A DNA stretch of 64,000 nucleotides from Fidelibacterota bacterium (GCA_021734255.1 JAIPJM010000003.1:61517-125516); one strand, 5' to 3'; shown: positions 3,406 through 60,552, counted from the stretch's first letter. A program made the numbers and translations. The notes: generated by a model not told the origin, from the letters alone.

Positions 3406-3646
3406 TGTCATTCTGAGTTTTATAACTGGGAAATGTCATCCTGAATCCTTCGACTAAGCTCAGGATAAACGCAGGATATTGAACCTGATTTCGAAGTAAG
3501 CCCTACACGTCTTCGCGATCCCGACAGGCATGTCGGGAGAAGCGATCTCCACTTGATCCCAATTGCCAAGATTATGTATGATTCAGCATCTTAAATTCTG
3601 AGATTGTCCGCCTACGCTTTGTCCTTCGACAGGCTCAGGATGACAG
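3406..3646. repeat. MITE-like repeat copy B (composite, about 240 bp) with internal direct repeat ccttcgacNNNgctcaggat and terminal inverted repeats tgtcatyctga / tcaggatgaca
   Basis: Alignable to copy A (tgatttcgaagtaagccctacacgtcttcgcgatccc + hairpin cccgacaggcatgtcggg + aattgccaagatta). Sits in the 5' region of the glpD-like gene. Confidence 0.5.
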
Positions 3647-3703
3647 CTTCGGCGGGGTGGGCCGTTGAATGACTAAAAGCCCTACCATGATACCGTCACA
3701 CTG

Positions 3704-5107
3704 CTATTTGAACAGAGGCCACCACAGGAGTGCCAGGAGCAGTAGTGATCCAATGGACATGATAGCCATCTTCCAGCCCGCTCGCAGGAAGTCAGGTGCC
3801 CTGACCAACCCGCTGGAATAAATAATGGTACAGGCAGGTGCGGCTACGGCTGTAAAATATCCAAAGGCTGAAGAAATGACGGAAGCCAGACCCAGAAGGA
3901 TGGGATCTCCACCTAAATTCAGTACGATGGGACCGACAACGGCAACGGTTGCTGAACTGCTCAGCAAATTTGAGAACACGCCGCTTAAGCCCACTGAGAC
4001 CACGGCCCGCAGTGCGTCTATATTGGGAATGATCCCACTCAACAGATTCACACTCCCCTCGGCCAGCCAGGCTGCGCCTCCTGTGTTTTTCATCTGAACA
4101 CCAATGGAGATGGTCGCTCCAAAGAGCAGAATTACTCCCCAGTTCACATTCTGCCGAATGTCCTCCCACGAGACCAGATCAAACGCGATGAACAGAAAAA
4201 CCCCCATGAGCGCTATGGTTCCGATCCCATACCTTTCGCTCAGGGTTATCCAACTGGTGAGGATGCCCAGAAAAAGCAGCATGGAAAATATCTCTTTCCT
4301 GGAGATCTTCCCGGCGCGGGCAACATTCACGGAGAGTTTACGAACGGCTGTGTCTAATATTTTTAATTCAGGCGGGAAGGTCTTCAGAATAATGAGGATG
4401 GTGATCGGTATCTCGATCAAAACCATGGGATATACCATCTTCATCCACTCCAGGTAACTCATTGTCCCAGACCCGAATTCTGCCCAATAATTCAGCATGA
4501 TAACATTACGGCCACCACCACTGGGAGTACCAATGGAACCAATGGTGGCGCCATAGGCGATGGAAAACAGCAGAGCCGCAACAAGGTTTGTGTCTGCCTT
4601 GCCCTTTTTATTGGTAAAACGAATGAGTGTGAGCGCTACGGGAAGCATCATGGCTGTGACCATGTGGGGTCCAACAAAACTGGATAAAAGTGCTGAGATG
4701 GCCGTAAATCCTGCGGCAATTCGCCAGGTCCGATTACCGGTGAGACGAATGATCCCCAGCGCGAGGCGCTTATCTAATCCCTGGCTGATAATGGCCACAG
4801 CCAACATGAGAGATCCCATGATAAAGAAGACCGCATCATTCATAAAGTAAGCGCCGACTTCATTGGGTGTGCTCCCACCGATAATTACCTGCCAGAACAG
4901 TAGTTGCAGGGCGATGGCTGGTAGCGGAATGGGTTCTTTCAGGATAAGGATCAGCGTCATCAGGATGATGATCAGGATGTGGTACCCAGCATCGCTCAAG
5001 CCTTCAGGAGCTGGGACGAATAGGTAGAGGATCCCTCCCAAAGCGAATGCGACCAGAAGCCAACGCTTCTGTTGGATCCAAAAAAGCGTATTCGTTGATA
5101 TGTGCAA
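3704..5107 (-). CDS. IT-superfamily anion permease (SLC13/DASS-like; ArsB/NhaD/CitMHS superfamily), paralog 1
   Basis: 467 aa, multi-TM throughout. About 65% identical to paralog 2 at 6038-7438, with shared blocks FMNDAVFFIMGSLMLAVAI, SQGLDKRLALGII, GTPSGGGRNVIM, SSSATVAVVGPIVL. Confidence 0.7.
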   Translation of the reverse strand: MHISTNTLFWIQQKRWLLVAFALGGILYLFVPAPEGLSDAGYHILIIILMTLILILKEPIPLPAIALQLLFWQVIIGGSTPNEVGAYFMNDAVFFIMGSLMLAVAIISQGLDKRLALGIIRLTGNRTWRIAAGFTAISALLSSFVGPHMVTAMMLPVALTLIRFTNKKGKADTNLVAALLFSIAYGATIGSIGTPSGGGRNVIMLNYWAEFGSGTMSYLEWMKMVYPMVLIEIPITILIILKTFPPELKILDTAVRKLSVNVARAGKISRKEIFSMLLFLGILTSWITLSERYGIGTIALMGVFLFIAFDLVSWEDIRQNVNWGVILLFGATISIGVQMKNTGGAAWLAEGSVNLLSGIIPNIDALRAVVSVGLSGVFSNLLSSSATVAVVGPIVLNLGGDPILLGLASVISSAFGYFTAVAAPACTIIYSSGLVRAPDFLRAGWKMAIMSIGSLLLLALLWWPLFK

Positions 5108-5120
5108 AGTAGGGCGCTTC

Positions 5121-6056
5121 TTAGCGGACGATCAGAATCGGGACATCCGTTTGCTTTAAGGTCTGAATGGGCTTACTTCCAAAAAGAAATTGTTTAAGCG
5201 GATTTAAGGTAGAGGCACCCATAATGACAATGTGATTATCACCGGCGAATTCTACGAAGGTTCGGACCGGGTCACCTGTGAGAAAAAATTGCTCCACATC
5301 AATTCCCCTGGAATCAAAGTAGGCTTTGGCCATGTCCGCAGCGCCCTGGTAACCAGCGCCAAACCGGCTGGTCTTGGAAACGGTCAGGGTTCTCACCGGC
5401 CATCCCAATTTTTCGGCGATCAGAGCTCCCCATTCAACAGATTTTGCTGTGGCTGTGGAATCGTCAACCAGCAGAAGGAGTTTATATTTTTTCCGGGGAT
5501 TGAATTTTTGCAAAACAAAAATTGAGCCTGGCAGGTATTGGATAAGGGAGTGAGCCAGATTCCGTTTGTTTTGACTCCCACCAATGATAGCAAGATCATA
5601 TTTTTCCAATTGCATCTCTTTACGCAACTCACCGACCAGTTCTCCTTCGCGCAAAACGAGCTCAATTTTCTTCCCTTCAACATCTGGCATGAAAACCCGG
5701 ATCCTGCCATCCTCTTCATAGACGTGATCTGGGTTGAACTGGATCTTCGCCAAAGCTTCGTTCTCGGGATTCAATTTCTTCAACTCCTTGAGTGCCCATT
5801 GCAACACTTCAAGACCAGGATGAATGATATTCCAGTCTGTCAGATTCTGGCGCGTCAGATTGACTGAGCTTCCATGAAACTCACTGGCTTTCTTGCCGAC
5901 GTAGGCTACACCCATGCTGGCATCAAATACAGAGGCAATGAGTGACCCAAATGTAAGCGTCGGTTTGGAGTACTTCTCACTGCTGACTGCCGTTAGAAAC
6001 TTGAGTGGTTTGGTGTCGATCTTTTCTCGTTTTTTCGTCATAATAGTGGCCACCAT
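5121..6056 (-). CDS. Universal stress protein, tandem UspA domains. Likely true start MTKKREK at 6041 with ATGA overlap onto the upstream permease stop.
   Basis: Two Usp-like halves (ILVDDSTATAKSVEWGA...; DVPILIVR C-terminus). Located between the two permease paralogs. Confidence 0.75.
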   Translation of the reverse strand: MVATIMTKKREKIDTKPLKFLTAVSSEKYSKPTLTFGSLIASVFDASMGVAYVGKKASEFHGSSVNLTRQNLTDWNIIHPGLEVLQWALKELKKLNPENEALAKIQFNPDHVYEEDGRIRVFMPDVEGKKIELVLREGELVGELRKEMQLEKYDLAIIGGSQNKRNLAHSLIQYLPGSIFVLQKFNPRKKYKLLLLVDDSTATAKSVEWGALIAEKLGWPVRTLTVSKTSRFGAGYQGAADMAKAYFDSRGIDVEQFFLTGDPVRTFVEFAGDNHIVIMGASTLNPLKQFLFGSKPIQTLKQTDVPILIVR

Positions 6057-7438
6057 AATAAGGATAATGCAAGTAGGCTAACAATAGATAAAACAGCCAT
6101 TTTCCAGCCCGCTCGTAAAAAATCTTTCGATCGCACAAGACCGCTGGAGTAGATAATAGTACAGGCTGGCGCAGCGACGGCAGTAAAATAGCCAAAGGCG
6201 GAGGCGATGGCGGTGGTGAAGCCAATGAGAATCGGGTCGCCCCCCAGGTCCAGCACGATGGGCCCCACTACAGCAACTGTAGCAGAACTGCTGAGAACAT
6301 TTGACATCACACCAGTAAGCAAGACTGAGACACTCCCCTGCAAGACCGCCGGACTTTCAATAATTTGACTGAGGTTAACGATTATGGTCTTGGCTACCCA
6401 TTGGGCGGCACCCGATTGATTCATCTGAATACCAATGGAAATAGCGGCACCAAAGAGGAGAATGACCCCCCAATTCGTCCGCTGATTCAGTTCACTCCAG
6501 TCAACCAAACCGAAAGCAAGATATAGGAAGACACCGATCAGAGCGATCACACCCAGACCAACATCTTCACTGAGGAAAACCCAGCCCAGGAACACCAGGC
6601 CAAAGAGGAACAGAGCCAGCCATTCCTTCCCTTTGATCTTGCCAGCATGGGCAACATCCACCACTAACTTTCGTACAGCGCTGTCCAGAATGTCGTATTC
6701 AGGTTTGAAGGTCCAGAGCAGAATGATGACTGTAAATGGGATCTGAAAAAGAACCATGGGATACACATATTTTATCCATTCCAGATAGGAGACAGTACCC
6801 ACACCAAATTCTGACCAATAATTCATCATGATCACATTCCGTCCACCACCAGAGGGGGTACCAATAGAGCCTATCGTGGCACCATAGGCGATGGAAAAGA
6901 GCAGGGCCGCTGTCAAGCCGGCAACTTTTCTGGGGTCTTTATGGGCATAGCGGACCAGGGTAAGACCAACGGGCATCATCATGGCGGTTACTGTATGTTC
7001 ACCAATAAATGAAGACAGAATCGCAGATATGGCGGTAAACCCAACGACGATTCGCCAGGTCTTATGGCCGGTGATCTTGATGATCCCCAGGGCCAGACGC
7101 TTATCCAGTCCCTGACTGACGATGGCTACCGCCAGCATGAGGGATCCCATGATGAAGAAAACGGCATCATTCATAAATGAAGACGCCACATTATTGGCGG
7201 TATCCACTCCCAAAACCACTTGCATGAAGATCATGAGCATGGCGATGGCTGGAAGGGGTAATGGCTCTGTAATGATCAGGATCAGAGCCATGGATATGAT
7301 GATCAGGGTATCGTAGGCCGCCATGGTCAAATCGGCAGGAGGTGTGATGAAAGTATGCATGACAAGGCCATACAAAAGGGCGATGAGCAGCCACTTTTTC
7401 TGACGTATCCAGAACAGGATATCGATATACATACTCAA
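6038..7438 (-). CDS. IT-superfamily anion permease (SLC13/DASS-like), paralog 2
   Basis: 466 aa. Close paralog of 3704-5107. Immediately downstream (minus strand) of the molybdoenzyme gene. Confidence 0.7.
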   Translation of the reverse strand: MSMYIDILFWIRQKKWLLIALLYGLVMHTFITPPADLTMAAYDTLIIISMALILIITEPLPLPAIAMLMIFMQVVLGVDTANNVASSFMNDAVFFIMGSLMLAVAIVSQGLDKRLALGIIKITGHKTWRIVVGFTAISAILSSFIGEHTVTAMMMPVGLTLVRYAHKDPRKVAGLTAALLFSIAYGATIGSIGTPSGGGRNVIMMNYWSEFGVGTVSYLEWIKYVYPMVLFQIPFTVIILLWTFKPEYDILDSAVRKLVVDVAHAGKIKGKEWLALFLFGLVFLGWVFLSEDVGLGVIALIGVFLYLAFGLVDWSELNQRTNWGVILLFGAAISIGIQMNQSGAAQWVAKTIIVNLSQIIESPAVLQGSVSVLLTGVMSNVLSSSATVAVVGPIVLDLGGDPILIGFTTAIASAFGYFTAVAAPACTIIYSSGLVRSKDFLRAGWKMAVLSIVSLLALSLLWWPLL

Positions 7439-7469: not shown

Positions 7470-10331
7470 CTATTCGGTGGAATTGTTCTTCAAATAGAAC
7501 AACTCCTTGCTTGGGGCTAAGGGGCGGCCCATCCAGAGCGGTCTTCTTAAGCCATCCGGGTGTGTCTCACGTTCTTTTGCCCAGTCATTCCACTTCTTGA
7601 AGTGAGCAAATGACTTTTCGGTATCTACAAAGACGTCACCATATTTTTCATCTGCTTTGGGCACACTGATGGTCACTTTTTGCAGCCAGCAATGGGCACC
7701 TGATACTGGATCCGGTTGGACGGCATGAGTGATGTTCTGATGAACCCCTCCATCTCGCCACCAGACACGCTGAGTGTCAGGATCGTCGGTCTTCCAGGGT
7801 TCGACGCCAGTGAGTGTCTCCATGCGCCACTTGCCTGTGCCTTCTTGACTGATCTTCACTGTATTGGTCATAAATTTATTGCCCTGGTCTTGCTGACGAC
7901 GCCAACGACCAATATGATGGGAACAGGCAACCACGCCAGGTTTAATTGCCTCTGTTACCCAAACTTTGTCCACGAACCAACCGATCTCTGTCTCAATTTT
8001 GAGCAATTCACCCGTTTTTACTCCCAGTTTTTTCGCATCAAGGGTATTGATCCAGATGGGGTTCCTGTGGGCGATCTCTGTCAGCCATTTGGCATTGGCA
8101 GAGCGACTGTGAATGTGGGTCGGAAGTCTGAAATTGGGTAACAGCACACATTCATGTTTGTCCTCATCCATATGATCCTTATGAACATGGGATTTGATAT
8201 AACCCGGTATGGCCTGATCCGGATAACCAAAATCCACCATGGTCTGGGAAAAGAACTCCTGTTTCCTGGAGGGTGTCGGAAATCCTGCATATTTCTTCCC
8301 TTTGTCAACAACACCAACCGCTTTACCGTCCTTTATCAGTGTTCCGGTTGCGGTCTCTGTGGCTCCTTCTGCGTCCATCTCAGATAGGGGCGTCTTGTTC
8401 TTCTCGTAGAGGCTGGGAACCACATTGTACGCGCCATACTTCCGCATATACTCAAGAGCGGTGAGACCCTCCTTTTCCGCTGTCTCCGTTAGGCCCTCTG
8501 TATGTTCGAAGATGTACTGGTAATATTCATCAATGTTGATCTTCTCGCCCTCGCGATAGGGGCTCATAAAGTGCTTCCTGATACCCAGATCATTGTCCTT
8601 ATCGATACGCCAGGATAGTTCGATCCAGAATTCATCCTCTTCCCAGACCTGGCCAGGGTTCACTTCGTAGGTGTACTCTACTGGCCTGCCTTCCCTTCTG
8701 GCTTGTTCTCTCAGAACGGGCTGACGATAGGCGATCCAGACCCCGGAATGGGTCTCATATGAATTGAGGTCATGGCGTTCGGGACCGTGTCCCATGGGAA
8801 GTACATAGTCTGCGAAAAATGCTGTCTCATTCCAGGTAGGCGTCAGTGCAATGTGGCAGCCAACTTTCTCTGGGTCAGACAGCATCTCGATCCAGGAAAA
8901 TCCATCGGGATAGGTCCAGACCGGGTTAAAGACTCGCGTAAAGTAAACATCCATGGTCCCACGACCATCCTTGATCAGGTGAGGCAGGATCTGACTCATT
9001 TCGAAGTGATTCAGAGTGTATTCCTGTGGAAAGTGGAGTTCATTCCAGACAGGGGGACCGGGAGGTACGTCAAAAAATTCAGGGTGGAATTTATTCCAGG
9101 CGCTGGGTGAGGTGCCACCGGGGGTTCCAACCGATCCTGTGAGGACATTCAGAAAATGCAGGGTTCTTGATACCTGCCAGCCGCCCAGGTTTCCGATGGA
9201 AGCGCCGCGCCATACATGACTTGACAACTGCGAGCCGGCGCCAGCAATAACATGAGCGACCTCAACGATCTGCTCTGCTTCAATACCGGCTTCGGATGCT
9301 GCATACTCAGGGGTGAACTCGGAGTAGACATCGATCAGAGCTGACACGAAATTGTCAAAAGTAAGGTCAAGATCGGGATGCTCAGCCTTGAGATATTCAT
9401 CCCAATTGACCCAGGTTTCCATATACTCACGATCATACAAGCCTTCTTGAAGAATGATACGGGCGATGGCCAGAAACACAGCTGCCTCAGATCCCGGGTA
9501 TGTTGGCATCCAGTAGTCGGCATGACTGGCTGTATTGGAGAGGCGGGGATCCAGCACGATAAGCTTGGCGCCCTTGAGCTTGCCTTCCATGATACGCTGA
9601 GCATGGGGATTGAAATAGTGACCGGTTTCAAGATGCGAACTGGCCAGGATGATAACCTTGGCGTTGGTGTGATCCGGAGATGGTCGATCGAATTTATGCC
9701 ACATGGCATATCCGGCACGTGCACCTGCTGAACAAATATTGGTGTGGGAATTATGTCCATCAACTCCCCAGGCCTTGAGAACACGTTCCATATAGCCTTC
9801 ATGTCCAGGACGACCGACATGGTAAACAACCTTATCCCGGCGCTCAGCTTTCAAAGATTTCTGGATCTTGGCTGCGATCTCATCCAGAGCCTGCTCCCAG
9901 GAAATGGTCTCCCACTTCCCTTCTCCACGCTCACCCGCCCGTTTCAGAGGATACATGATACGTTCAGTATCATTCACCTGGTTAATGGTTGCAGGACCTT
10001 TGGCACAGTTCCTTCCGCGGGAACCTGGGTGGTGAGGATTTCCCTCAAATTTACGGATCTTGCCGTCTTCTTTGTCGATATATGCCAACAAACCACAGGC
10101 TGATTCGCAATTGAAACAGGTGGTCGGAACGATACTATAGCGTCGCTCTTTTTTTACGGGCCAGGATTTGGGATCCAATTCTGCAAAATCTTCCCACTGA
10201 TCCGGGGGGGGATATTTATACAGGGGTCGCGGTCCTTCAAGAGCATAGACCTCTGAAGTGTCTTCATGTTGGGATATCCTGGGGATCACCCCGATCCCTT
10301 CGGCAAATTTTTCTATCCATGAACGTTTCAT
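7470..10331 (-). CDS. Molybdopterin (bis-MGD) oxidoreductase catalytic subunit, DMSO-reductase/CISM family. No Tat signal, so predicted cytoplasm-facing (SoeA-like / PsrA-PhsA-TtrA-like).
   Basis: 953 aa. N-terminal [4Fe-4S] motif CFNCESACG...C about 75 aa from the start. Candidate Mo-ligand region HTNICSAGARAGY. Main frame has an in-frame TGA 9 codons upstream of the ATG, so no hidden RR leader. Partner FeS/NrfD gene upstream. Confidence 0.85.
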   Translation of the reverse strand: MKRSWIEKFAEGIGVIPRISQHEDTSEVYALEGPRPLYKYPPPDQWEDFAELDPKSWPVKKERRYSIVPTTCFNCESACGLLAYIDKEDGKIRKFEGNPHHPGSRGRNCAKGPATINQVNDTERIMYPLKRAGERGEGKWETISWEQALDEIAAKIQKSLKAERRDKVVYHVGRPGHEGYMERVLKAWGVDGHNSHTNICSAGARAGYAMWHKFDRPSPDHTNAKVIILASSHLETGHYFNPHAQRIMEGKLKGAKLIVLDPRLSNTASHADYWMPTYPGSEAAVFLAIARIILQEGLYDREYMETWVNWDEYLKAEHPDLDLTFDNFVSALIDVYSEFTPEYAASEAGIEAEQIVEVAHVIAGAGSQLSSHVWRGASIGNLGGWQVSRTLHFLNVLTGSVGTPGGTSPSAWNKFHPEFFDVPPGPPVWNELHFPQEYTLNHFEMSQILPHLIKDGRGTMDVYFTRVFNPVWTYPDGFSWIEMLSDPEKVGCHIALTPTWNETAFFADYVLPMGHGPERHDLNSYETHSGVWIAYRQPVLREQARREGRPVEYTYEVNPGQVWEEDEFWIELSWRIDKDNDLGIRKHFMSPYREGEKINIDEYYQYIFEHTEGLTETAEKEGLTALEYMRKYGAYNVVPSLYEKNKTPLSEMDAEGATETATGTLIKDGKAVGVVDKGKKYAGFPTPSRKQEFFSQTMVDFGYPDQAIPGYIKSHVHKDHMDEDKHECVLLPNFRLPTHIHSRSANAKWLTEIAHRNPIWINTLDAKKLGVKTGELLKIETEIGWFVDKVWVTEAIKPGVVACSHHIGRWRRQQDQGNKFMTNTVKISQEGTGKWRMETLTGVEPWKTDDPDTQRVWWRDGGVHQNITHAVQPDPVSGAHCWLQKVTISVPKADEKYGDVFVDTEKSFAHFKKWNDWAKERETHPDGLRRPLWMGRPLAPSKELFYLKNNSTE

Positions 10332-10394: not shown

Positions 10395-12005
10395 CTAGCT
10401 CAACGGAATCAACTGGGGTACCCGGATCCTCACAAACTCGGTGAGATAAATACCGACAGCAGCCAGGCCAGCAGCGATGAAGACCATGAGATCCGTATCC
10501 AGAGTATAAAGCATAGCCAGCGGAACAATATTTCCCATGAGTATTCCCAGATAGAAATAGCGGCTATAATAGCCCCCGGTCATGAGTTTATGGGCACGTT
10601 TGGTATCCGATGTGGCATGCGGGCTCAGGAATTCAAGTACGAGAAGAGCCAGATTCAGAGAAACGGCAACCTTGAGTACCGTGAGGACCAGTCCACCTCC
10701 ATCACTGGCCAGGAAAATCCAACCTGCCGCACCAGCGATCAGAGCATGGATCAGCATGTGAACAGGAGCCAGATGATTGGCCCACAGATCTCTTCCTTTA
10801 GCCTGAGCCAGCAGGAAGGCCGTATAAATAGCCGTCATGACCGCAATTGGGGCCGTTAGATTGATCAGCAACTTGCGAAAGCCCAGGTCGAAAAGGTTAT
10901 CAAGCAGGAGCAGGGTTACAACACCACCAAAGGCTGTGATCAAGTATCCACCGCGAACCAGCCAGCTGGACCAGTTGGGTCTCAGTAGTACATAGGGGAA
11001 GCGATCCGGTCGATCCAGATCTTTCACCAACAAACCGCCAGTGAACAGCATGAATACCAGGGTCCCAATAGCAGCAGAAAACTCAAGGCTTGAATTTGAG
11101 ACACCACCGAACCATGATAACAGGGCCATGATCAGCATGAGCCCCGTCGCCACAGATTTGGTCCAGATGTAAGCCGGGACTTCCCAGCCCCAAAGCACAC
11201 CTTTGGCAGGTGAGTCGTAGACACGGGTTGCTTTGCTGGATGCCTGTTCTTTTAATTCTGCCAGCACATTATCGATAGCTCTTTGATCCGGTTGGGTGCC
11301 ATTTTTCGCATGGGATTCCATGGCCATCTGTACCAGGAGATCGGCTTGGGCCTCTGTGCTTGCAGGGTCACTGGCATGTTTGGCAAAATGACCAACACCA
11401 CTGGACTGCTCACTCCAAATATAATTATCGCGACGATCGGTCTGGGTCGGTGTCAGCATATCTGAATCACCTTCCACATACCAGAGATTGGGGGTGGTCC
11501 CCTTTTCTGGTTTTCTGGTGACCACGTGCTCCATAGCAACAAAAGATGATATTTTTGAATGCGGATCATCCAGATCCCCTGAAACGATGGCCTCCGTCGG
11601 ACAGATCACAACACATGCTGGTTCATATCCGCCATCGATCCTGTGGGCACAGTAATTACACTTGGCCGCCGTATTGTCATTGGGGTCGATATAGAGTGCA
11701 TCGTAGGGACAAGCCTGCATACAGGACTTGCAGCCGATACAACGCGCATTATCGAAATCTACGATTCCGTCCATACGTGTATACAGGGCAGACGTGGGAC
11801 AGATCTCCGTGCAGGGAGCATCTTCACAATGATTGCAACGGTGGACTGAGAAGGAACGACTGGTGTCCGGAAAGACACCTTTTTCGATGTATTTCACATG
11901 GGTGCGATTGACACCGATGGCCACATCGTGTTCAGATTTACAGGCAACCGTACAGGCATGACAGCCAATACATTTACGGTTGTCTATGACAAAGCCATAA
12001 TTCAT
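10395..12005 (-). CDS. Fused electron-transfer/membrane-anchor subunit: N-terminal 4x[4Fe-4S] ferredoxin domain (PsrB/SoeB-like) plus C-terminal NrfD/PsrC/SoeC-like polytopic membrane domain
   Basis: Four Cys clusters (CIGCHACTVACKSEH, CNHCEDAPCTEICP, CIGCKSCMQACP, CNYCAHRIDGG..CVVICP) in the first 150 aa. A hydrophilic linker follows, then about 8 TM helices. No signal peptide. Confidence 0.8.
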   Translation of the reverse strand: MNYGFVIDNRKCIGCHACTVACKSEHDVAIGVNRTHVKYIEKGVFPDTSRSFSVHRCNHCEDAPCTEICPTSALYTRMDGIVDFDNARCIGCKSCMQACPYDALYIDPNDNTAAKCNYCAHRIDGGYEPACVVICPTEAIVSGDLDDPHSKISSFVAMEHVVTRKPEKGTTPNLWYVEGDSDMLTPTQTDRRDNYIWSEQSSGVGHFAKHASDPASTEAQADLLVQMAMESHAKNGTQPDQRAIDNVLAELKEQASSKATRVYDSPAKGVLWGWEVPAYIWTKSVATGLMLIMALLSWFGGVSNSSLEFSAAIGTLVFMLFTGGLLVKDLDRPDRFPYVLLRPNWSSWLVRGGYLITAFGGVVTLLLLDNLFDLGFRKLLINLTAPIAVMTAIYTAFLLAQAKGRDLWANHLAPVHMLIHALIAGAAGWIFLASDGGGLVLTVLKVAVSLNLALLVLEFLSPHATSDTKRAHKLMTGGYYSRYFYLGILMGNIVPLAMLYTLDTDLMVFIAAGLAAVGIYLTEFVRIRVPQLIPLS

Positions 12006-12059: not shown

Positions 12060-13232
12060 TCAGGAAGCCTGTTGAGCAGCATATGCAGACGCTGCACATT
12101 CGTTCTTCCCAAGGTCCATGGTGCTCTGCTCATCATCCTCTGGATTCAGCCAACCGGCATTCACCTTTCTGATCTCAGCATAGACATCAGGCTGCTTACG
12201 TATGTTTTCCAGGATGAATTTTTGGAAATCCTTATCATTATCGATCCCATAAATGGACGCATTACCCTCAATGATCTTCCCCAGTGATTTTTCAAAAACC
12301 AGGTCTTCATTTGCTTCGCTCCACTGGATATAATGACCGGGAAGCACCTGAAGGTTGGGATCCATCTTTTTGATCTTCTGGTTTACTGTTTCATAAAGCA
12401 TGGTGGCCCATTCGACTGCTTTACCGCCTAGATCTGGTCGCCCCAGCGATATGATGAAAATCGTATCTCCAGATATCACATATTTCCCGTCAATGATGTA
12501 GCAGGTGCTGCCAGGTGTATGGCCCGGCGTATGAACGATCCTGATATCAGGGCCTTTGGGAGAAGCCTTGTAGGTCTCGCCGTCCTGAATAGAAACATAT
12601 TCGAAACTGGCACCGAGAAAATCACCGGCATGTGCATGAACCACTGCCCCTGTTTTTTCTGCCAGGAAGCGACTGCCACTGATATAATCAGCCTGAAGGT
12701 GTGTTTCGAAAGTTTGGGTTAGCTTGCAATCATGCGCTTCCGCAAATTGAGAGTAAAACTCCATATTCCTCGAAGGATCAAAGAGAGTCAGCTCACCTTC
12801 AGAGATCAAACCATAATTCAGAGAGGCTTTTCCAGGCCGAACGAACTGCCACAGTTCGTAGGTATCCGCAGTATCGTTAATTCTTTTGTCTGTCAACATA
12901 TTGCCCCAGGAAACGATTCCCTGGGTTAGATACCCTACATCTTCAAATCCATGGGCGATCAGGATCTCGCCTACATATTTCGCTGAGCCTTCCTTCGCGC
13001 AGACGACCCTCACCTTTTTATCACGCGGGACCTTGGCTACCGATGCTTCCTCTTCTTCCATGAAGTCAAAATAAGGGACATTGATCATATCCACTTCAAC
13101 GGGACTTTCCACTTTGAAGCGGTTGAAGTCCTCTTCATTTCTTACATCCAGAATGAGGAGTTCTTCCGCTTGGGTGAGCCAGTCAAAAAGTTGCTTTGCT
13201 GAGTAGGGAGTAAGCATGTAATTACCTCGCAA
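12060..13232 (-). CDS. Rhodanese-domain / MBL-fold fusion protein, persulfide dioxygenase (ETHE1/Blh)-like
   Basis: N-terminal rhodanese (LILDVRNEEDF...VVCAKEGSAKY). C-terminal MBL fold aligning to ETHE1 (THLQADYISGS vs THCHADHITGS; HTPGHTPGS; SGDTIF). The ETHE1 Fe ligands (His, His, Asp) are conserved. Confidence 0.75.
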   Translation of the reverse strand: MRGNYMLTPYSAKQLFDWLTQAEELLILDVRNEEDFNRFKVESPVEVDMINVPYFDFMEEEEASVAKVPRDKKVRVVCAKEGSAKYVGEILIAHGFEDVGYLTQGIVSWGNMLTDKRINDTADTYELWQFVRPGKASLNYGLISEGELTLFDPSRNMEFYSQFAEAHDCKLTQTFETHLQADYISGSRFLAEKTGAVVHAHAGDFLGASFEYVSIQDGETYKASPKGPDIRIVHTPGHTPGSTCYIIDGKYVISGDTIFIISLGRPDLGGKAVEWATMLYETVNQKIKKMDPNLQVLPGHYIQWSEANEDLVFEKSLGKIIEGNASIYGIDNDKDFQKFILENIRKQPDVYAEIRKVNAGWLNPEDDEQSTMDLGKNECAASAYAAQQAS

Positions 13233-13478
13233 TCATTTCATACGCTGGACATAGAATATCTTATCGAGTCCAACTTCGTCTATCTGTAAAACCTTTTGTC
13301 CGGAGGCTCTGCACCAGGCCTTGATATCTGATTCTGCTCAGGGATGAGCAGCTGTAATTTTCAGTATCTCACCTATCTGCATCATTCTTAATTGTTGGTT
13401 CGAACGAATCACCGGCATTCCCATGCCGCAGTCCCCCAGATCTATGGATACATCCCATTTGACGTCCATATGCTTCAT
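13233..13478 (-). pseudogene. TusA-like sulfur-carrier paralog with in-frame TGA (13338-13340) and altered active-site motif (CPxP replaced by CGMGMP)
   Basis: Translation MKHMDVKWDVSIDLGDCGMGMPVIRSNQQLRMMQIGEILKITAAHP*AESDIKAWCRASGQKVLQIDEVGLDKIFYVQRMK aligns along its whole length with the neighbouring TusA (…DPGSKNDISAWTSRTGHELLG…FVYFIKKK). The stop sits where Gly/Ala is expected. The extended frame ends exactly at the start of the next gene. Confidence 0.5.
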
Positions 13479-13482
13479 TGTG

Positions 13483-13998
13483 CTAAATGAAAAGTGATAT
13501 ATCAGCGTCTGCCGCAAACTCCAGGAAGGTTGCTGCACCGCCAAGTTCAACGCCATCGATGAACTGATCCTGTGTAAATCCGAAGACATCCATGGTCATC
13601 TGACAGCCAATCAGTCTGACACCCAGATCGATGCACATTTCACGCAGCTCTTCCACCGTCGCGACACCTTTTTTCGCAAAGGTCTTCTTCATGAAGGATG
13701 TTGCCATGGCCTCATAGCCTGGAACATTGTTGCCCAGGATATTGGGGATGGGCCACTCAAAATTCTGAAATCCCTTTGGCCCAAATGGCATCTTCATGGG
13801 CATGGCAGGATTGGTCTGTGGCGCCACCTTGGCATCAATCTTTTTGTTCAGCAGGGGCAGCCCATAGAAGGTAAAGAATACAGCAACTTCCATATCCATG
13901 GCGGCTGCTGTCGAGGCTAGTAAAAATGGCGGATAAGCCCAGTCCAGAGTTCCCTGGGAGGCGATCATTGCCAAGCGCTTGGGTCTGTTTTCACTCAT
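13483..13998 (-). CDS. DsrE/DsrF-like (DsrE2-type) sulfur-relay family protein
   Basis: 171 aa. Conserved LIGCQMTMDVFG Cys motif typical of the DsrE/DsrF/DsrH-like family. Adjacent to TusA. Confidence 0.7.
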   Translation of the reverse strand: MSENRPKRLAMIASQGTLDWAYPPFLLASTAAAMDMEVAVFFTFYGLPLLNKKIDAKVAPQTNPAMPMKMPFGPKGFQNFEWPIPNILGNNVPGYEAMATSFMKKTFAKKGVATVEELREMCIDLGVRLIGCQMTMDVFGFTQDQFIDGVELGGAATFLEFAADADISLFI

Positions 13999-14009
13999 GG
14001 ATCACCCGC

Positions 14010-14246
14010 TCACTTCTTCTTGATGAAGTAAACGAACCCTTCATCATTTTCATCAGTACCAAGTAGTTCATGGCCTGTACGGGACGTCCATGCAGAAATA
14101 TCATTTTTTGAACCTGGATCAGTCGCTACCATTTTTAGAATTTGACCACTCTCCATAGCATCAATTGCCTTCTTGGTCTTGATCACGGGAAGAGGGCAAT
14201 TCAGTCCTTTGCAATCCAGTTCCTGATCCACATTAAATTCTGTCAT
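14010..14246 (-). CDS. tusA: TusA-like sulfurtransferase
   Basis: 78 aa with canonical LDCKGLNCPLPVIKTKKAI...TDPGS (CPxP motif). Confidence 0.85.
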   Translation of the reverse strand: MTEFNVDQELDCKGLNCPLPVIKTKKAIDAMESGQILKMVATDPGSKNDISAWTSRTGHELLGTDENDEGFVYFIKKK

Positions 14247-14596
14247 TTAGCTACTCCTTCTTTCTCCGGGAAAAGCTCCCCCAATTTGAATTCTCCAGCT
14301 TCCAATCCGATTTTGCATGAATTGACGCAATTTAAGATTTTCACGATCATATCACTGGCTAAAAAATAAAAAAATCGGGTGCCCTCACGCCTGGAGGCCA
14401 GAATGTTGCGTCTTTGCATGTAACGCAGATGCTGGGAAGTGATGGGCTGGGGGAGATCCAATTCACGTTGGATCTGTCCGACTGACTTTTCTTCTTCCTG
14501 CAAAAACTCAATGATCCGTAATCGTTCGGGATGCCCCAATGCTTTCAAGGTCTTGGAGGCTGATGCGAAAAATTCAGCTTTCTCGGTATCGGTCAT
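14243..14596 (-). CDS. ArsR/SmtB-family transcriptional regulator, SqrR/BigR-like candidate persulfide/redox sensor
   Basis: HTH region LKALGHPERLRIIEFLQEEEKSVGQIQRELDLPQPITSQHLRYM. C-terminal CVNSC pair. Start placed at MTDTEK (14594-14596), because the upstream direct repeats are likely the operator. The ORF track's longer start is 14632. Confidence 0.8.
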   Translation of the reverse strand: MTDTEKAEFFASASKTLKALGHPERLRIIEFLQEEEKSVGQIQRELDLPQPITSQHLRYMQRRNILASRREGTRFFYFLASDMIVKILNCVNSCKIGLEAGEFKLGELFPEKEGVAK

Positions 14597-14801
14597 GTTT
14601 TGTATCACCATTATTAAGACAATATTTGTCATAATATATAGTTTTCACTATATTTGTCAAGTTGAATATTTACACCTGTAGGGCAGCGGTCATGGCAATT
14701 GCTTTTAGCACCAAAAAATGTAGTTTGTCAGGTGTTTTACACCTTCTTTTATAGTAACCCATCCCCCATTAATTCATCAATAATGATATAATTTTTCAGG
14801 A
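14597..14801. promoter_or_regulatory. Divergent promoter region (regulator leftward, acnA rightward) with direct repeat TATTTGTCA x2 (14623-14631, 14651-14659) and near-palindrome GACAATATTTGTC
   Basis: Repeats seen directly, in an AT-rich interval between divergent genes. Candidate ArsR-family operator. Confidence 0.4.
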
Positions 14802-30237: not shown

Positions 30238-30743
30238 GTCTATTAATTACTCCTGTTCATGCGAAGACTGATGTACAACGCTTGGCTGGTCTGGCCAGTG
30301 AGATCTGGTGGCAGCATTTTCCCCCGATCATTGGTAAAGCTCAGGTCGAATACATGGTTAAAAAGTTTCAAAGTGAAACAGCCATACTGGAGCAATTAGA
30401 GCAGGGCTATGACTATTTTCTGGCTGAGATTGATGGCCTCGCTGTTGGATATACCGGCCTGCTACCTGATGCAGAGGCAAAAAAGCTGATGATCAGCAAG
30501 CTTTATGTGAAAGAGAATGCCCGTGATAACGGTGTTGGTCAGACGCTCCTGGATTTCATTGAAAAGAAATGTAACACTGAAGGGCTTGATACACTCTGGC
30601 TCACAGTGAATCGCGGAAACACGGGACCGATCAATTGGTATCTGAAACGTGGGTTTAGGATCACAAAAGAAGTTGACATGGACATCGGTGAAGGCTTTAT
30701 CATGGATGACTATATCATGGAAAAGGACTTACACCGGGACTGA
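30234..30743 (+). CDS. GNAT family N-acetyltransferase
   Basis: RDNGVGQTLLDFIEKK acetyl-CoA motif. Confidence 0.7.
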   Translation: MSLLITPVHAKTDVQRLAGLASEIWWQHFPPIIGKAQVEYMVKKFQSETAILEQLEQGYDYFLAEIDGLAVGYTGLLPDAEAKKLMISKLYVKENARDNGVGQTLLDFIEKKCNTEGLDTLWLTVNRGNTGPINWYLKRGFRITKEVDMDIGEGFIMDDYIMEKDLHRD

Positions 30744-31549
30744 TGACGTCGATCACGGGAAATATTTTCAACATTAAACGATACGCTATTCATGATGGAC
30801 CCAACATCCGGACCACGGTCTTCTTTAAGGGTTGCTCCCTCTCCTGCTGGTGGTGTCACAACCCGGAAGGGAAATCCCCAGAGGTCCGGTTCAAGTCAAA
30901 CCCTCGGCAAACCTTTGAGTCCAGCGATGAAAAATTGGTTCCTTTGGGTGGCTGGACAAGTACAGTCTCTGAGATCATGGGGGAAATACGCAAGGATCTG
31001 CCCTTCTTCCAGGAAAGCGGTGGTGGCGTCACTTTCTCTGGTGGTGATCCCCTCTACCAGCCCGAGTTTCTTCAGGCGCTCCTCAAGGCTTGTGGCCAGG
31101 AGAACATCCATCGAAGCGTTGATACCTCAGCCCATGCCCCTGCAGAGATCATTCGTTCAGTTGCAGGAGAAACTGAGCTCTGGTTATTGGACCTTAAACA
31201 CATGGATAATACCCTGCATCTTAAGCATACGGGTTTAGAAAACGGCTTGATCCTTCAAAATATCAAACTGCTGGATGCATTGGGCGCGGAAATTCGTATC
31301 CGCATCCCTTTGATCCCGGGAGTGAATGCTGATGAACAGAATCTGACTGCGTCAGCAAAATTCATCTGTGATCTGGAACGTAAACATCCCATTGATATCT
31401 TACCCTATCATGACACGGCTGCTTCAAAATATCGAACCCTGGGGTTAGATTATCGCCAGGTGCAAGCAAGCGGACCAGAATCATTGAATCCAGAACAGCT
31501 CATAGAATTGATGGGCAGCTATGGACTCTCAGCCCAAATAGGTGGTTAA
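30743..31549 (+). CDS. Glycyl-radical enzyme activating protein (PFL-AE family radical SAM)
   Basis: FFKGCSLSCWWCHNPE (CxxxCxxC) plus GGDPLYQPEF. Confidence 0.9.
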   Translation: MTSITGNIFNIKRYAIHDGPNIRTTVFFKGCSLSCWWCHNPEGKSPEVRFKSNPRQTFESSDEKLVPLGGWTSTVSEIMGEIRKDLPFFQESGGGVTFSGGDPLYQPEFLQALLKACGQENIHRSVDTSAHAPAEIIRSVAGETELWLLDLKHMDNTLHLKHTGLENGLILQNIKLLDALGAEIRIRIPLIPGVNADEQNLTASAKFICDLERKHPIDILPYHDTAASKYRTLGLDYRQVQASGPESLNPEQLIELMGSYGLSAQIGG

Positions 31550-31552
31550 AGA

Positions 31553-33910
31553 ATGAATGACCGTATCAATAGATTGAGACAGGAAAGCTTTGAGGCAAAG
31601 CCATCCATCTCCATTGAGCGGGCCTTGCTTGAAACTGAATTTTATCAGGATAATGCAGATAATTATTCGCTACCGGTTCTGCGCGCACTGACCTTTAAAC
31701 ACATCTGTGAAAACAAATCGCTCTATCTCGGACCTGATGAACTTATTGTCGGCGAGAGGGGACCGTCACCTAAATCTGTTCCCACATTTCCAGAGCTGAC
31801 CTGCCATAGCGTTGAAGACTTGAAGATTCTAAAAAGTCGTGAAATGACACCTTACGATATTTCCGATACTGATATAGCCATCTACGCTGAAAAGGTCATC
31901 CCGTATTGGGAAGGTCGGTCCATGCGGGATCGGATATTCTCAAAAGTGCCTGAAGACTGGAAGCTTGCCTATGAGGCTGGACTTTTCACCGAGTTCATGG
32001 AACAGCGGGCACCAGGACATACGGCCCTGGATGGAACCATCTATCGAATGGGTATGATCGATCTCAAGGCGCGCATCGCTGATCGTATCCAGCGCTTGGA
32101 TTATGATAGCGATCCTCAGGCAGCTGATCGGTATGAGCAACTCAAAGCCATGGATATCACCTGCGACGCCATTATCATTTTTGCCGCTCGTCACGCTGAG
32201 CTGGCTGAATCTCTGATCAAACAAACCGCCGATCCTGAACGCGTCCAGGAGTTAAAAACGATCGCTTACGTGTGCCGAAATGTTCCGGCGAAGGCTCCTC
32301 AAACATTTCATGAAGCTATCCAGATGTACTGGTTCGTGCACCTGGGCATCATCACAGAACTCAATGGCTGGGACGCCATGACACCTGGACACATCGACCA
32401 TCATTTGATACCCTTTTACGAAAAGGAGATCGTTGACGGAACCCTGACCCGGGAGGGGGCAAAGGAACTGATGAGTTGCCTGTGGATCAAGGTGAACAAC
32501 CAGACTGCACCGCCAAAAGTTGGGGTAACAGCAAAGGAAAGTGGCACTTATAACGATTTCACCCAGATCAATCTTGGTGGCCTCTACCCGGATGGGAGCG
32601 ATGCCAGTAATGAGGTGTCCCTGATCGGCCTGGAAGTATCGGACGAACTTCATCTGCTTCAGCCTCAGCCCAGTGTCCACATCAGCTCGAAGACGCCAGA
32701 TGCATTCCTGACGGCTGCCAGTAAAGTCATTCGCAAGGGGTACGGCTACCCCTCCGTCTTTAACACAGAGATGGTGGTGAAAGAACAGCTCCGTGTCGGC
32801 AAATCCGCACAAGATGCATTGGAAGGCGGTACCAGCGGCTGTATCGAGACCGGTGCCTTTGGCAAAGAAGCCTATATTCTCACAGGTTATTTCAACGTCC
32901 CCAAGGTATTGGAACTTACCCTGAATAATGGTACAGATCCCCTGAGTGGCAAGCAAGTGGGGCTAAAGACCGGACCCGTTGAATCTTTTTCAACCTATGA
33001 GGAGTTGTACTCGGCATTTTTGAAACAATTGCACTACTTCGTCGATTTGAAGATCCGGGTAAATAACTATATCGAACAGATGTATGCCAACTACTCTCCG
33101 GCTCCCTTCTTATCAGTTGTGATTCATGATTGTATCGAGAAGGGTCAGGACTATTACAACAGCGGTCCCCGTTACAACACCAACTACATCCAGTGTTGTG
33201 GGATCGGGACGGTGACCGACAGTCTTTCTGCGTTAAGGACCCATGTCTTCGGCGGTGAGCTTGACATGGCTGAGTTAATGGCAGCACTTGAAGCGAATTT
33301 TGAGGGTTTCGACGATCTCCGATCCCAACTACAGCATCAGACCCCCTTCTATGGTAACGATGATGATCGGGCAGACATGATCATGCTGGATGTTTATGGC
33401 GATCTATTCAAAGCCATCGATGGCAAGCCCAACACCAAAGGAACGGTTTATCATCTCAATATGCTTTCCACCACCTGTCATATATATTTTGGCAAAATGC
33501 TAGGTGCCACACCCAACGGACGGCGTGCTCATCTACCAGAATCAGATGGCACTTCTCCCTCACACGGTGCAGATGTGCAGGGTCCCACAGCTGTGGTAAA
33601 GTCCCTGAGCAAAATGGATCAATCCTTGTCCGGGGGTACTCTGCTGAATCAACGATTCCTGCCTGACGTACTTGCTTCGGACCAGGACCTGAAAAACCTG
33701 GGGAGTCTCATCCGTACCTACTTCAAGCTTGGTGGTCATCATATGCAGTTCAATGTTGTAGATACAGCGACCCTGCGCAAAGCCCAAGCGAACCCAGACG
33801 ACTATAAAAACCTTCTGGTTCGGGTTGCAGGTTACAGCGATTATTTTGTTGATCTGGATAAGGATCATCAGGAAGAGATCATTCGTAGAACAGAGCAAGG
33901 GTTACCTTAA
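31553..33910 (+). CDS. Glycyl radical enzyme, Cys-X-Glu eliminase/dehydratase-type (substrate unknown)
   Basis: 785 aa. C-terminal glycyl-radical motif RVAGYSDYF. Cys loop GTSGCIETGAFG (C-x-E, as in the GDH/CutC/HypD/IslA class). PFL-like GATPNGRRAHLPESDGTSPSHGAD block. Confidence 0.85.
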   Translation: MNDRINRLRQESFEAKPSISIERALLETEFYQDNADNYSLPVLRALTFKHICENKSLYLGPDELIVGERGPSPKSVPTFPELTCHSVEDLKILKSREMTPYDISDTDIAIYAEKVIPYWEGRSMRDRIFSKVPEDWKLAYEAGLFTEFMEQRAPGHTALDGTIYRMGMIDLKARIADRIQRLDYDSDPQAADRYEQLKAMDITCDAIIIFAARHAELAESLIKQTADPERVQELKTIAYVCRNVPAKAPQTFHEAIQMYWFVHLGIITELNGWDAMTPGHIDHHLIPFYEKEIVDGTLTREGAKELMSCLWIKVNNQTAPPKVGVTAKESGTYNDFTQINLGGLYPDGSDASNEVSLIGLEVSDELHLLQPQPSVHISSKTPDAFLTAASKVIRKGYGYPSVFNTEMVVKEQLRVGKSAQDALEGGTSGCIETGAFGKEAYILTGYFNVPKVLELTLNNGTDPLSGKQVGLKTGPVESFSTYEELYSAFLKQLHYFVDLKIRVNNYIEQMYANYSPAPFLSVVIHDCIEKGQDYYNSGPRYNTNYIQCCGIGTVTDSLSALRTHVFGGELDMAELMAALEANFEGFDDLRSQLQHQTPFYGNDDDRADMIMLDVYGDLFKAIDGKPNTKGTVYHLNMLSTTCHIYFGKMLGATPNGRRAHLPESDGTSPSHGADVQGPTAVVKSLSKMDQSLSGGTLLNQRFLPDVLASDQDLKNLGSLIRTYFKLGGHHMQFNVVDTATLRKAQANPDDYKNLLVRVAGYSDYFVDLDKDHQEEIIRRTEQGLP

Positions 33911-33913
33911 ATC

Positions 33914-34756
33914 ATGATTTCAGTACACAGCCTCCATATTTATCCCGTAAAATCTCTTCAGGGAATCGACCTGAAGTCAGCCAGATTGGGTATCCGAGGT
34001 CTCCAGTATGATCGGACCTGGATGGTGACCGATGCCCAGAATAAATTCATCACTCAGCGCCATTACCCGAAGCTGGCAAGGATCCAGGTTGAGTTAACGC
34101 AGGACCAAATGACCTTAAGTCACCCGTCCATGGATCCTCTCTGTGTCGATCTGGAAGATTCCCATTCTGATCAATTGGAAGCAACGATCTGGGATGATAA
34201 GGTAAAGGCAATGGATGAAGGGAAAGAGGCTTCCCAATGGTTAACCCAGGTTCTGGGGACGATAGACGGACATTCCTTGAAACTACTACGCTATCATCCT
34301 GATCATATACGCCACGTGAGCCAAAAACATCTGCGGGATGAAGCCGCCCACACCGCTTTTGCTGATGGATTCCCCTTTCTGATCACTTCTGTAGAATCCC
34401 TGGGCAAACTCAATGAAGTCCTTCAAAACAATGGTTCTCAGCCTGTTGGTATGAACCGCTTTCGACCCAATATCGTCATTCGTGGTGTTGAACCCTTTGG
34501 TGAAAACTCACTGGATACACTTGCTTCAAACTCAGGTGAATATGGGCTGGGTATTCGCAAACCCTGCCAGCGATGTCATGTCACAACGATCGATCAATCC
34601 ACTGGACAGAAGATCGAACCGAAAGAACCCCTGCGAACGCTTTTGCAGATGGACACCCAGCCAGGCCTGGAAGGCGCCTACTTCGGACAAAACTCAATAT
34701 TACTGTTTGGGAAAGACGCACTGATACAGGTAGGCGATCAGTTGAGTCCCTCCTGA
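33914..34756 (+). CDS. MOSC domain-containing protein (YcbX/mARC-like, MOSC_N beta-barrel plus MOSC)
   Basis: [15 protein letters not shown]..., FRPNIVIRG. Conserved Cys in the C-terminal half (CQRCHVTT). Confidence 0.75.
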
Positions 34757-60475: not shown

Positions 60476-60552
60476 TGGTGGTCGATACTGGATTCGAACC
60501 AGTGACCTCCCGGATGTGAACCGGACGCTCTAACCAGCTGAGCCAATCGACC
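60476..60552 (-). tRNA. tRNA-Val (anticodon CAC), CCA encoded
   Basis: Minus-strand GGTCGATTGGCTCAGCTGGTTAGAGCGTCCGGTTCACATCCGGGAGGTCACTGGTTCGAATCCAGTATCGACCACCA. Cloverleaf arms and the anticodon loop TTCACAT give anticodon CAC. Confidence 0.85.

Follow-up and report, generated by a model that had tools for sequence, protein, structure and literature searches.

A conserved cassette of a DASS permease and a tandem universal stress protein in Marinimicrobia, with a possible role in molybdate or tungstate supply

The window analysed here is a stretch of 64,000 nucleotides from a Fidelibacterota bacterium (GCA_021734255.1, JAIPJM010000003.1:61517-125516). Its minus strand encodes, at positions 3704-7438, two permeases of the SLC13/DASS family, permease A (6038-7438) and permease B (3704-5107), which flank a gene for a universal stress protein (USP; 5121-6041). 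The real unit of this region is a conserved two-gene cassette, in which a dedicated USP of the tandem type follows a divergent DASS permease. The duplication took in the entire cassette and dates to near the base of a Marinimicrobia clade; most members of that clade, the window included, have since lost the second USP. As the cassette repeatedly ends operons of molybdenum enzymes or of their cofactor in this phylum, its substrate is more likely an oxyanion, for example molybdate or sulfate, than a carboxylate. Our preferred reading, of less than even confidence, is that the cassette is a USP-gated oxyanion importer analogous to PerO of Rhodobacter capsulatus, and that its operon-level role in Marinimicrobia would be the supply of molybdate or tungstate.

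The permease-USP cassette and its stress protein

The permease A and USP genes of the window overlap in an ATGA sequence at CTATTATGACG, where the stop codon TGA of the permease (6040-6038) shares two nucleotides with the start codon ATG of the USP (6041-6039), as an earlier note on this DNA had read it. Most USP orthologues begin with the same methionine, which gives a protein of 306 residues. Thirteen nucleotides separate the USP gene from that of permease B, which starts with TTG. The open reading frame (ORF) of permease A opens at a TTG at 7438; the ATG at 7432, preceded by GGAG, is the likelier start. A metagenome-assembled genome (MAG) of Candidatus Marinimicrobia encodes proteins with 100% identity to permease A (P0121) and to the USP (P0001); the organism is an uncultured marine bacterium of the Marinimicrobia (SAR406).

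A scan of species-representative genomes returned at least 575 relatives confirmed by tblastn and at least 77 loci, nearly all of them labelled Marinimicrobia and a few carrying other labels or none. Among the matches listed, the USP gene adjoins the permease gene in 78 of 81 Marinimicrobia loci, and the three exceptions are contig ends. The permease mostly precedes the USP, and the order is sometimes the reverse. A second group of cassettes, from a metagenome scan seeded with distant relatives, belongs to Alphaproteobacteria by the names of its sources (MAGs of Rhodospirillaceae, Sneathiella and Hyphomicrobiales, none a named PerO host). The permeases of this group are 44-51% identical, and a tandem USP follows them in 37 of about 42 loci, in otherwise unrelated neighbourhoods. 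The two genes are spaced by -38 to +43 nucleotides, barring one ORF-call overlap of -164 nucleotides, and megabase-scale alphaproteobacterial contigs contain no consistent neighbour besides the USP. The 50%-identity representatives of the wider family include a natural fusion in which an N-terminal Usp domain is joined to a DASS permease (P0323) and two fusions of a receiver (response-regulator) domain with a DASS permease (P0348 and P0331). The fusion size of 691 residues matches that of the long group-Cii DASS proteins of sulfate reducers (PMC5840216).

Because the adjacency is near-universal in two phyla and a natural Usp-DASS fusion exists, both of which would be classic signatures of a physically interacting pair, the permease and USP are candidate partners, and the partnership suggested in the earlier note is well backed. 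Over 16 species, USP distances have a partial correlation of 0.61 with those of permease A and of -0.05 with those of permease B, from pairs that are not independent. The co-evolution check named in the earlier note thus gives a signal for A and not for B, which is suggestive of co-variation with permease A only. The strict pairing and the fusion lend themselves well to studies of how a secondary transporter is controlled by USP domains, a question still unanswered for most USPs. Our literature searches yielded no account of a strict cassette of a DASS permease and a tandem USP in two phyla.

The AlphaFold2 model of the USP is composed of two α/β domains (pLDDT 83.6, pTM 0.84), of which Pfam finds only the C-terminal one (residues 192-311). 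The top Foldseek matches of the model are tandem-type USPs, namely TTHA0350 (E 4e-15), Rv2623, the AF USP and UspE; the top structures are 3ab8, 3cis, 3loq, 4r2j and 5cb0, each with about 300 aligned columns. In an alignment of 31 homologues the N-terminal half resembles a USP and bears a conserved insertion; together with the model and the structural matches, the alignment confirms the earlier description of a double Usp protein. The protein resembles TTHA0350, Rv2623 and UspE in having two USP domains per chain (E 4e-15 to 1e-7, TM score about 0.6-0.78), but shares only 11-18% sequence identity with them. The insertion in its N-terminal domain, W-x-I-x-H-P-G-L-E-V-L-x-W-A, also occurs in the alphaproteobacterial cassette USPs and distinguishes it from the three characterized proteins. 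The N-terminal domain is degenerate, and the homologue alignment contains no nucleotide-binding motif in it. Unlike those three, the cassette protein keeps part of the motif G-2x-G-9x-G-[ST] in its C-terminal domain only, as G-A-S-T-x9-G-S, in which threonine replaces the second glycine. Residues D193, D194 and S195 are invariant.

Single-domain Foldseek matches of the model include TeaD (E about 1e-5), and weaker ones the USP-like C-terminal regulatory domains of cation-chloride cotransporters. TeaD gates the TRAP transporter TeaABC, and the cotransporter domains act likewise. As in the cassette, TeaD of Halomonas elongata (PDB 3hgm) is a USP encoded with a membrane subunit of the ion-transporter superfamily; however, it has one domain and binds ATP, whereas the cassette USP has two domains with a degenerate N-terminal one, and its partner is a DASS carrier. 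By analogy, the USP may dock on the cytoplasmic face of the permease and gate transport in response to a nucleotide-type signal. It would probably restrain or license transport through a nucleotide-type ligand on its C-terminal domain, with the conserved N-terminal insertion as a candidate docking surface.

Substrate-site motifs and duplication of the permeases

Both permeases match the Pfam families Na_sulph_symp (PF00939, E 5e-50 and 4e-47) and CitMHS, and exceed the cut-off of 198.6 bits of the NCBIfam model TIGR00785 'dass', with 227.9 and 217.8 bits. Their best relative of solved structure is VcINDY, which aligns with query residues 45-461 (E 1e-34). The family assignment proposed in the earlier note is therefore secure. 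That note had named assignment to a carboxylate-specific subfamily with conserved binding residues as a finding that would speak against its reading; neither of the permeases matches any carboxylate-specific equivalog model, only the generic 'dass' model, and the first of the binding motifs is missing.

The likeness to VcINDY and the SLC13/DASS family (TC 2.A.47) extends over the full length and includes the Ser-Asn of the second hairpin-tip motif, but the first Ser-Asn-Thr motif and the GSPPN and TPPN motifs of VcINDY are replaced, and the permeases here have a dedicated USP partner. At the tip of the first hairpin, Ser150-Asn151-Thr152 of VcINDY, the motif that binds the carboxylate and Na1, is substituted by G-E-H in permease A and by G-P-H in permease B; G144 and H146 are invariant across the permease subfamily. 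GSPPN in transmembrane segment (TM) 5b is replaced by GGGRN with an invariant arginine, and TPPN in TM10b by A-P-A-C with an invariant cysteine. The SNT motif of the second hairpin tip becomes S-N-V in A and S-N-L in B, with invariant Asn378 and a variable third residue. The signature of the subfamily is G-E-H, GG[GA]RN and P-[AT]-C. The first two elements are common in a wider DASS branch, and the cysteine marks the USP-linked clade. The invariant arginine, histidine and cysteine at substrate-site positions count against a carboxylate carrier. Molybdate and sulfate are both tetrahedral dianions, and would therefore suit a divalent-anion carrier that lacks the carboxylate and Na1 motif and has gained these three residues. 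We hypothesize that the permease is a carrier of a small tetrahedral divalent oxyanion, similar to PerO.

Permeases A and B are 65% identical (291 of 449 residues) and 79% similar in an ungapped alignment, far above chance and in agreement with the first estimate. The change of glutamate to proline at the Na1-ligand position of VcINDY (N151) is present in all 19 permease B orthologues, and is absent from permease A, from 61 of 64 single-copy Marinimicrobia orthologues and from the alphaproteobacterial ones. Mean distances over the 16 species that have all three genes are 0.10 for A, 0.17 for B and 0.18 for the USP, so that permease A is the most conserved of the three and B evolves faster than A. 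The earlier idea of different ion coupling in the two paralogs receives some support from the alternative of proline and glutamate at this position.

Permease A may represent an ancestral, USP-controlled mode of transport coupled to cations or protons, since it carries the glutamate, is coupled to the USP in translation and co-varies with that protein. In permease B, coupling and USP control may have been altered or lost. A change of coupling or affinity is probable because of the proline, the faster evolution and the loss of its own USP in most lineages; it could involve a shift in affinity, function as a facilitator or exchanger, or a preference for tungsten over molybdenum. Heterodimers of A and B are possible. 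With its fixed change at a coupling-ion position, the pair provides a natural comparison of coupling modes.

The history of the pair is recorded in its relatives. Three of them (L001, L008 and L010) have the order permease-USP-permease-USP, with a second USP gene at the place of the 264-nucleotide spacer (3440-3703) that follows permease B in the window. Another relative, L020, contains a single cassette between an aconitase gene and a DAO gene. Neighbour-joining trees separate permease A from permease B, and one USP type from the other, into distinct clades inside one Marinimicrobia sublineage. The groups of A and B orthologues are each conserved in at least 16 species, and are about 84-92% and 70-84% identical to the respective copies of the window. 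A search of the spacer for a pseudogene remnant of the second USP returned noise only (best E 0.4), and the spacer folds no better than shuffled sequence (z -1.15). The permease-USP-permease-USP relatives, the separate A and B clades and the spacer free of remnants thus establish a duplication of the whole cassette followed by loss of the USP. The earlier account of a fairly recent duplication of the permease gives way to an older event that included the USP.

The minus strand of the spacer contains two copies of a short ATCCTGAGC...TCGAAGGA motif, at 3446-3466 and about 3615-3640, that resemble a REP-like element and were not significant as searched; the repeated ATCCTGAGC...CGAAGGA motif was dropped on this ground. 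In other Marinimicrobia clades (L029, L038, L039, L044, L121 and L142) the permease has been doubled in tandem a second, independent time, in the order USP-permease-permease or permease-USP-permease and with a divergent third type of permease, which is also present in L060, L076 and L080.

Genomic context and the transported anion

Of the 72 loci with an upstream flank, 30 have moaE (17 loci) or psrA (13 loci) as the gene immediately before the cassette, at a distance of 3-98 nucleotides and on its strand. In the window this gene is psrA (7470-10331, minus strand), the catalytic subunit of an enzyme with a molybdenum or tungsten bis-pyranopterin guanine dinucleotide cofactor (Mo/W-bisPGD), which corresponds to PsrA of Marine Group A and ends 31-37 nucleotides from permease A. 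The linkage to a molybdoenzyme noticed earlier is real in the window and not obligatory, as close relatives have no psr genes at this place. The loci L048 and L061 contain the order psrBC-psrA-moaA-moaC/mogA-tauE-moeA-moeB-moaD-moaE-permease-USP, which joins psr to the synthesis genes of the molybdenum cofactor (Moco). Other lineages keep the psr part only, as the window does, the Moco part only, or neither. The order from Moco genes to permease recurs in about 20 more metagenome contigs. In L045 and L063 the cassette still adjoins moaE or psrA despite a swapped order of USP and permease, and in L050, L053, L062 and L075 the Moco genes, permease and USP occur without psr or sulfur-relay genes within 10 kb. 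The TauE/SafE (TSUP) gene of the Moco operon lies between moaC-mogA and moeA (L062:6257-7093 and about 13 GTDB loci), and TauE genes recur near alphaproteobacterial cassettes (L108:10152-11132, L164:3829-4572).

In 19 loci a riboswitch of the Moco type precedes the unit moaA...moaE-permease-USP. The Rfam family RF01055, of molybdenum and tungsten cofactor (Moco/Tuco) riboswitches, matches upstream of moaA in L075 (4123-4255) with 37.3 bits against a cut-off of 36, and nhmmer finds homologous elements at the same place in 18 more loci (L045, L047, L048, L050, L052, L053, L055, L061, L062, L077, L104, L109, L113, L123, L130, L131, L135 and L154). In their alignment, 19 of 34 pairs predicted by RNAalifold have compensatory changes, and the hallmark conserved segments are retained. 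The Marinimicrobia elements lack P3, and most have an extra hairpin in the P5 region, which explains their low Rfam scores. At E ≤ 0.01, Rfam has no match for L061 or L053, and L061 reaches only 21 bits. RF01055 thus appears to under-detect this clade, with a single copy above the gathering score. Genes known to lie behind Moco RNAs include those of molybdate transporters, of Moco synthesis and of Moco enzymes, and RNAs without P3 correlate with use of the tungsten cofactor (PMC2408646). In L048, L052, L061 and L077 the riboswitch is located between psrA and moaA; the permease therefore belongs to the unit controlled by the cofactor and not to that of the enzyme.

The molybdate or tungstate reading rests chiefly on this arrangement, in which, where enzyme and cofactor genes co-occur, the permease is part of the cofactor unit under riboswitch control. 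What the recurrent contexts have in common is a molybdenum or tungsten enzyme that faces the cytoplasm, or the pathway to its cofactor, with TusA and DsrE2 as a second, partly independent theme. The emphasis on sulfur in the earlier note is accordingly shifted: the phylum-wide pattern of moaE or psrA upstream and of a Moco riboswitch points at least as much to molybdenum. The permease would import molybdate or tungstate to serve both the synthesis of the cofactor and the neighbouring molybdoenzyme on the cytoplasmic side, and maybe sulfate too.

Two characterized systems serve as models. PerO imports molybdate at micromolar levels as well as tungstate, vanadate and sulfate (PMC4710039), and is treated as a member of the DASS family (PMC5840216). 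PerO (Gisin 2010, Hoffmann 2017) is a secondary permease of the DASS type, which makes it a functional model that fits both the molybdenum and the sulfur contexts; it is, however, of low affinity and unselective, and we know of no USP partner or riboswitch control reported for it. The second model is the group of genes DVU0542-DVU0545 of Desulfovibrio vulgaris, in which USPs are co-transcribed with a putative transporter of the sulfate-exporter family, and USP and transporter have opposite fitness phenotypes with molybdate, consistent with a brake exerted by the USP (PMC10102598). In contrast to the cassette, that transporter belongs to the PSE family (TC 2.A.98) and not to DASS, and its USPs are encoded by separate genes.

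Several observations weigh against a role in molybdate or tungstate supply. Sulfate exceeds molybdate about 10^5-fold in seawater, so an unselective PerO-like carrier would be swamped by it, and molybdenum supply would need selectivity. The window permeases are coupled only to psrBCA and sulfur-relay genes: neither nhmmer nor Rfam finds a riboswitch in the window, and no Moco synthesis, mod or sulfate-assimilation genes were found across its whole length. The cassette is near-universal in the phylum, and it also occurs in contexts without molybdenum genes, such as Rpe-Tkt-RpiB, aconitase and alphaproteobacterial loci. DsrE2 and TusA genes lie directly upstream of it without a molybdenum enzyme in L001, L012 and L017 and in the alphaproteobacterial L111 and L151. 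Shared synteny within one phylum may partly reflect inheritance and not selection, and the TauE/TSUP transporter of the Moco operon could be an alternative carrier of molybdenum or sulfur anions. A comparative survey of 2018 scored the Marinimicrobia genomes then available as not using molybdenum (PMC6147048). Our loci differ from that survey (PMC6147048) in that a complete operon of Moco biosynthesis is present in at least 20 of species level, and psrA in many.

A wider claim, that the cassette is an unrecognised and widespread non-ABC route of molybdate and tungstate uptake, expressed in pelagic Marinimicrobia from a Moco operon under a P3-less, Tuco-like riboswitch variant, gated post-translationally by the USP and divided in the window's lineage into Glu and Pro paralogs, is possible but rather doubtful. 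The paralogs could then comprise a Glu-bearing, USP-controlled and a Pro-bearing, USP-independent form, which could differ in affinity, in coupling or in the choice of molybdenum or tungsten. The protein families involved are known, the psr operon has been published and duplication of a permease is ordinary; our literature searches found no account of the cassette in a Moco operon with a divergent P3-less riboswitch, nor of the fixed coupling-site change in the paralogs. If true, molybdate or tungstate uptake by the cassette would explain how an abundant ocean phylum supplies its cytoplasm-facing molybdoenzyme. Marinimicrobia rank with the most abundant uncultured bacteria in the dark and oxygen-poor ocean, and the psr genes underlie their placement in the marine sulfur cycle.

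The enzyme encoded next to the cassette has been described in Marine Group A as psrBCA, with a fused psrBC upstream of a psrA that lacks a twin-arginine translocation (TAT) signal (PMC3906813). It is related to complexes of green sulfur bacteria proposed to oxidise sulfite (PMC3906813), and is expressed in Saanich Inlet (PMC5688066). The complex of the window is of this type, with a Mo-bisPGD subunit, a fused 4Fe-4S ferredoxin and NrfD-type membrane anchor (psrBC fusion; 10395-12005, minus strand) and the gene order BC then A. It shares with the published cluster (Wright 2014; Hawley 2017) the phylum and a rhodanese gene upstream, and SoeABC and the green-sulfur PSRLC3-type cytoplasmic complexes are grouped with psrBCA as the closest known systems. 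The N-terminus of the window psrA contains no RR motif, and PsrA would face the cytoplasm because it has no TAT signal. Its nearest relatives of solved structure are ArrA and Thermus PsrA, with near-equal scores and ArrA barely ahead. Term searches of the two psr papers (PMC3906813, PMC5688066) found no symporter or universal stress protein, and by these searches neither paper mentions a downstream permease with its USP, a Moco operon or a riboswitch. The psr operon thus runs on into a conserved anion-transport module outside those descriptions. The module is a cloneable handle on what crosses the membrane for the Psr/Soe-like enzyme and on how streamlined cells obtain molybdenum or tungsten.

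The same neighbourhood gives rise to the strongest alternative, in which the permeases carry sulfur oxyanions for the cytoplasm-facing Psr/Soe-like enzyme, with thiosulfate or sulfite imported or sulfate exported and the paralogs split between import and export, while TusA, DsrE2 and rhodanese would handle sulfane sulfur. We consider it less probable than the molybdenum reading but a strong rival. For the window taken by itself it is the reading that comes more naturally, as Moco genes and riboswitch are lacking there and the permeases end an array on one strand, ArsR-TusA-DsrE2-(TusA-like)-Rhd/MBL-psrBC-psrA-permease A-USP-permease B, where Rhd/MBL denotes a fusion of rhodanese and a metallo-β-lactamase fold. 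The full array from ArsR to permease recurs in the distant Marinimicrobia L036, L043 and L054, and DsrE2 or TusA adjoins the cassette even without psr, in L001, L012 and L017. The alphaproteobacterial L147 and L152 have the order DsrE2-TusA-FadL-permease-USP-SoeABC-like, and L111 and L151 the order DsrE2-TusA-FadL-permease-USP with no molybdenum enzyme mapped. A cytoplasm-facing active site requires that substrate or product cross the membrane (PMC3906813), and DASS genes of sulfate reducers respond to the level of sulfate and PerO imports it (PMC5840216). TauE-family genes are also recurrent nearby. Against this stands the position of the permease behind the Moco riboswitch with the cofactor genes, and not with psrBCA, wherever both are present. 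In many loci, moreover, among them L050, L053, L062 and L075, Moco genes and cassette go together with neither psr nor sulfur-relay genes inside 10 kb; sulfur genes are missing around most alphaproteobacterial cassettes, and the substrate of the Marinimicrobia Psr is itself still unsettled (PMC8359478). The proposal of the earlier note that sulfite or thiosulfate enters and sulfate leaves therefore survives as a rival, but the Moco context favours molybdenum.

The locus L147:4694-15282, with which L152 agrees, encodes a divergent ArsR, DsrE2, TusA, a FadL-like outer-membrane protein, the DASS permease, the tandem USP and the Soe-like ABC. The complex consists of a 989-residue molybdenum subunit without a TAT signal, an FeS subunit and a DmsC-type anchor, and the catalytic subunits of L147 and L152 are only 27% identical to the window psrA. 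A second, cytoplasm-facing molybdenum enzyme beside the cassette in another phylum speaks independently for the link to molybdenum. A DUF442/BLH-phosphatase-like gene lies near the L147 cassette.

Uptake of di- or tricarboxylates such as succinate, malate, citrate or 2-oxoglutarate, by a heterotroph, as with VcINDY, SdcS or CitT, and with an adjacency of psr and Moco genes that is an accident of history, is improbable. It has in its favour that among solved structures the closest relative is VcINDY, a carrier of dicarboxylates, that the JGI label on relatives is 'sodium-dependent dicarboxylate transporter', that close relatives have a divergent aconitase neighbour, and that glutamate dehydrogenase is encoded downstream in 23 loci. 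These points are outweighed by the replacement of the first Ser-Asn-Thr motif, the invariant arginine of TM5b and cysteine of TM10b, the lack of a match to carboxylate-specific equivalog models, and an adjacency to molybdenum genes that spans deep clades and survives the swap of gene order. The aconitase neighbour was rejected as a hint of citrate, as its adjacency is limited to one shallow clade.

Transport of another small anion, phosphate, arsenate or arsenite, or selenate, is the least probable: the DASS members Pho87/90/91 carry phosphate, Rpe is encoded directly upstream in about nine Marinimicrobia and eight alphaproteobacterial loci, the array includes an ArsR regulator, ArrA narrowly leads Thermus PsrA as a relative of the molybdenum subunit, and alphaproteobacterial permeases have weak Pfam matches to ArsB, but no ars, arr or pst/pho genes lie nearby, these associations are weaker and less specific than those with molybdenum and sulfur, and ArsR-family repressors are also usual regulators of sulfur-oxidation clusters. 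The loci with Rpe upstream are L025, L026, L029, L042, L058, L066, L067, L070 and L082 in Marinimicrobia and L097, L098, L103, L108, L118, L127, L129 and L155 in Alphaproteobacteria; in both phyla Rpe is often accompanied by transketolase, RpiB or phosphoribulokinase.

Other features of the array and window

The array of the window begins with the gene of the ArsR-family (HTH_5) regulator (14243-14632, minus strand, as are all genes of the array), whose relative in L001 is annotated with PF01022. Just upstream of it, a sigma-70-like promoter match (14631-14660, minus strand; TTGACA-16/18-TATATT, 11 of 12 positions, a match to the consensus only) is the sole strong promoter candidate for the array from ArsR to the permeases. 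No terminator-like sites were found in any intergenic gap of the array, and the gaps are too short to hold promoters or terminators. Beyond the 264-nucleotide spacer lies a gene for a GlpD-like flavoprotein.

The TusA sulfur carrier (14010-14246) is annotated with PF01206 in L001. The DsrE2-type sulfur carrier (13483-13998) scores 209.3 bits with NF047629, just under the cut-off of 210. Between dsrE2 and the rhodanese-MBL gene, tblastn detects a second, divergent TusA-like small ORF (13242-13454) that is 28% identical to TusA; it is also present in L016. In the rhodanese-MBL fusion (12060-13232), the sequence T-H-L-Q-A-D-Y, identified by eye, takes the place of the usual metal motif H-x-H-x-D-H, and the protein may therefore not be an active enzyme of the persulfide dioxygenase type.

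Elsewhere in the window, a tRNA gene (60479-60552, minus strand) is the only match at the Rfam gathering level. A glycyl-radical enzyme (30743-33910, plus strand) was considered as a sulfite-releasing sulfonate lyase and rejected, as it is a trans-4-hydroxy-L-proline dehydratase (1165 bits against a cut-off of 1100). Its activase is encoded at 33914-34756 on the plus strand, and directly after it lies a gene for a MOSC-domain protein, a member of a family of Moco-dependent or Moco-sulfurase-related proteins.

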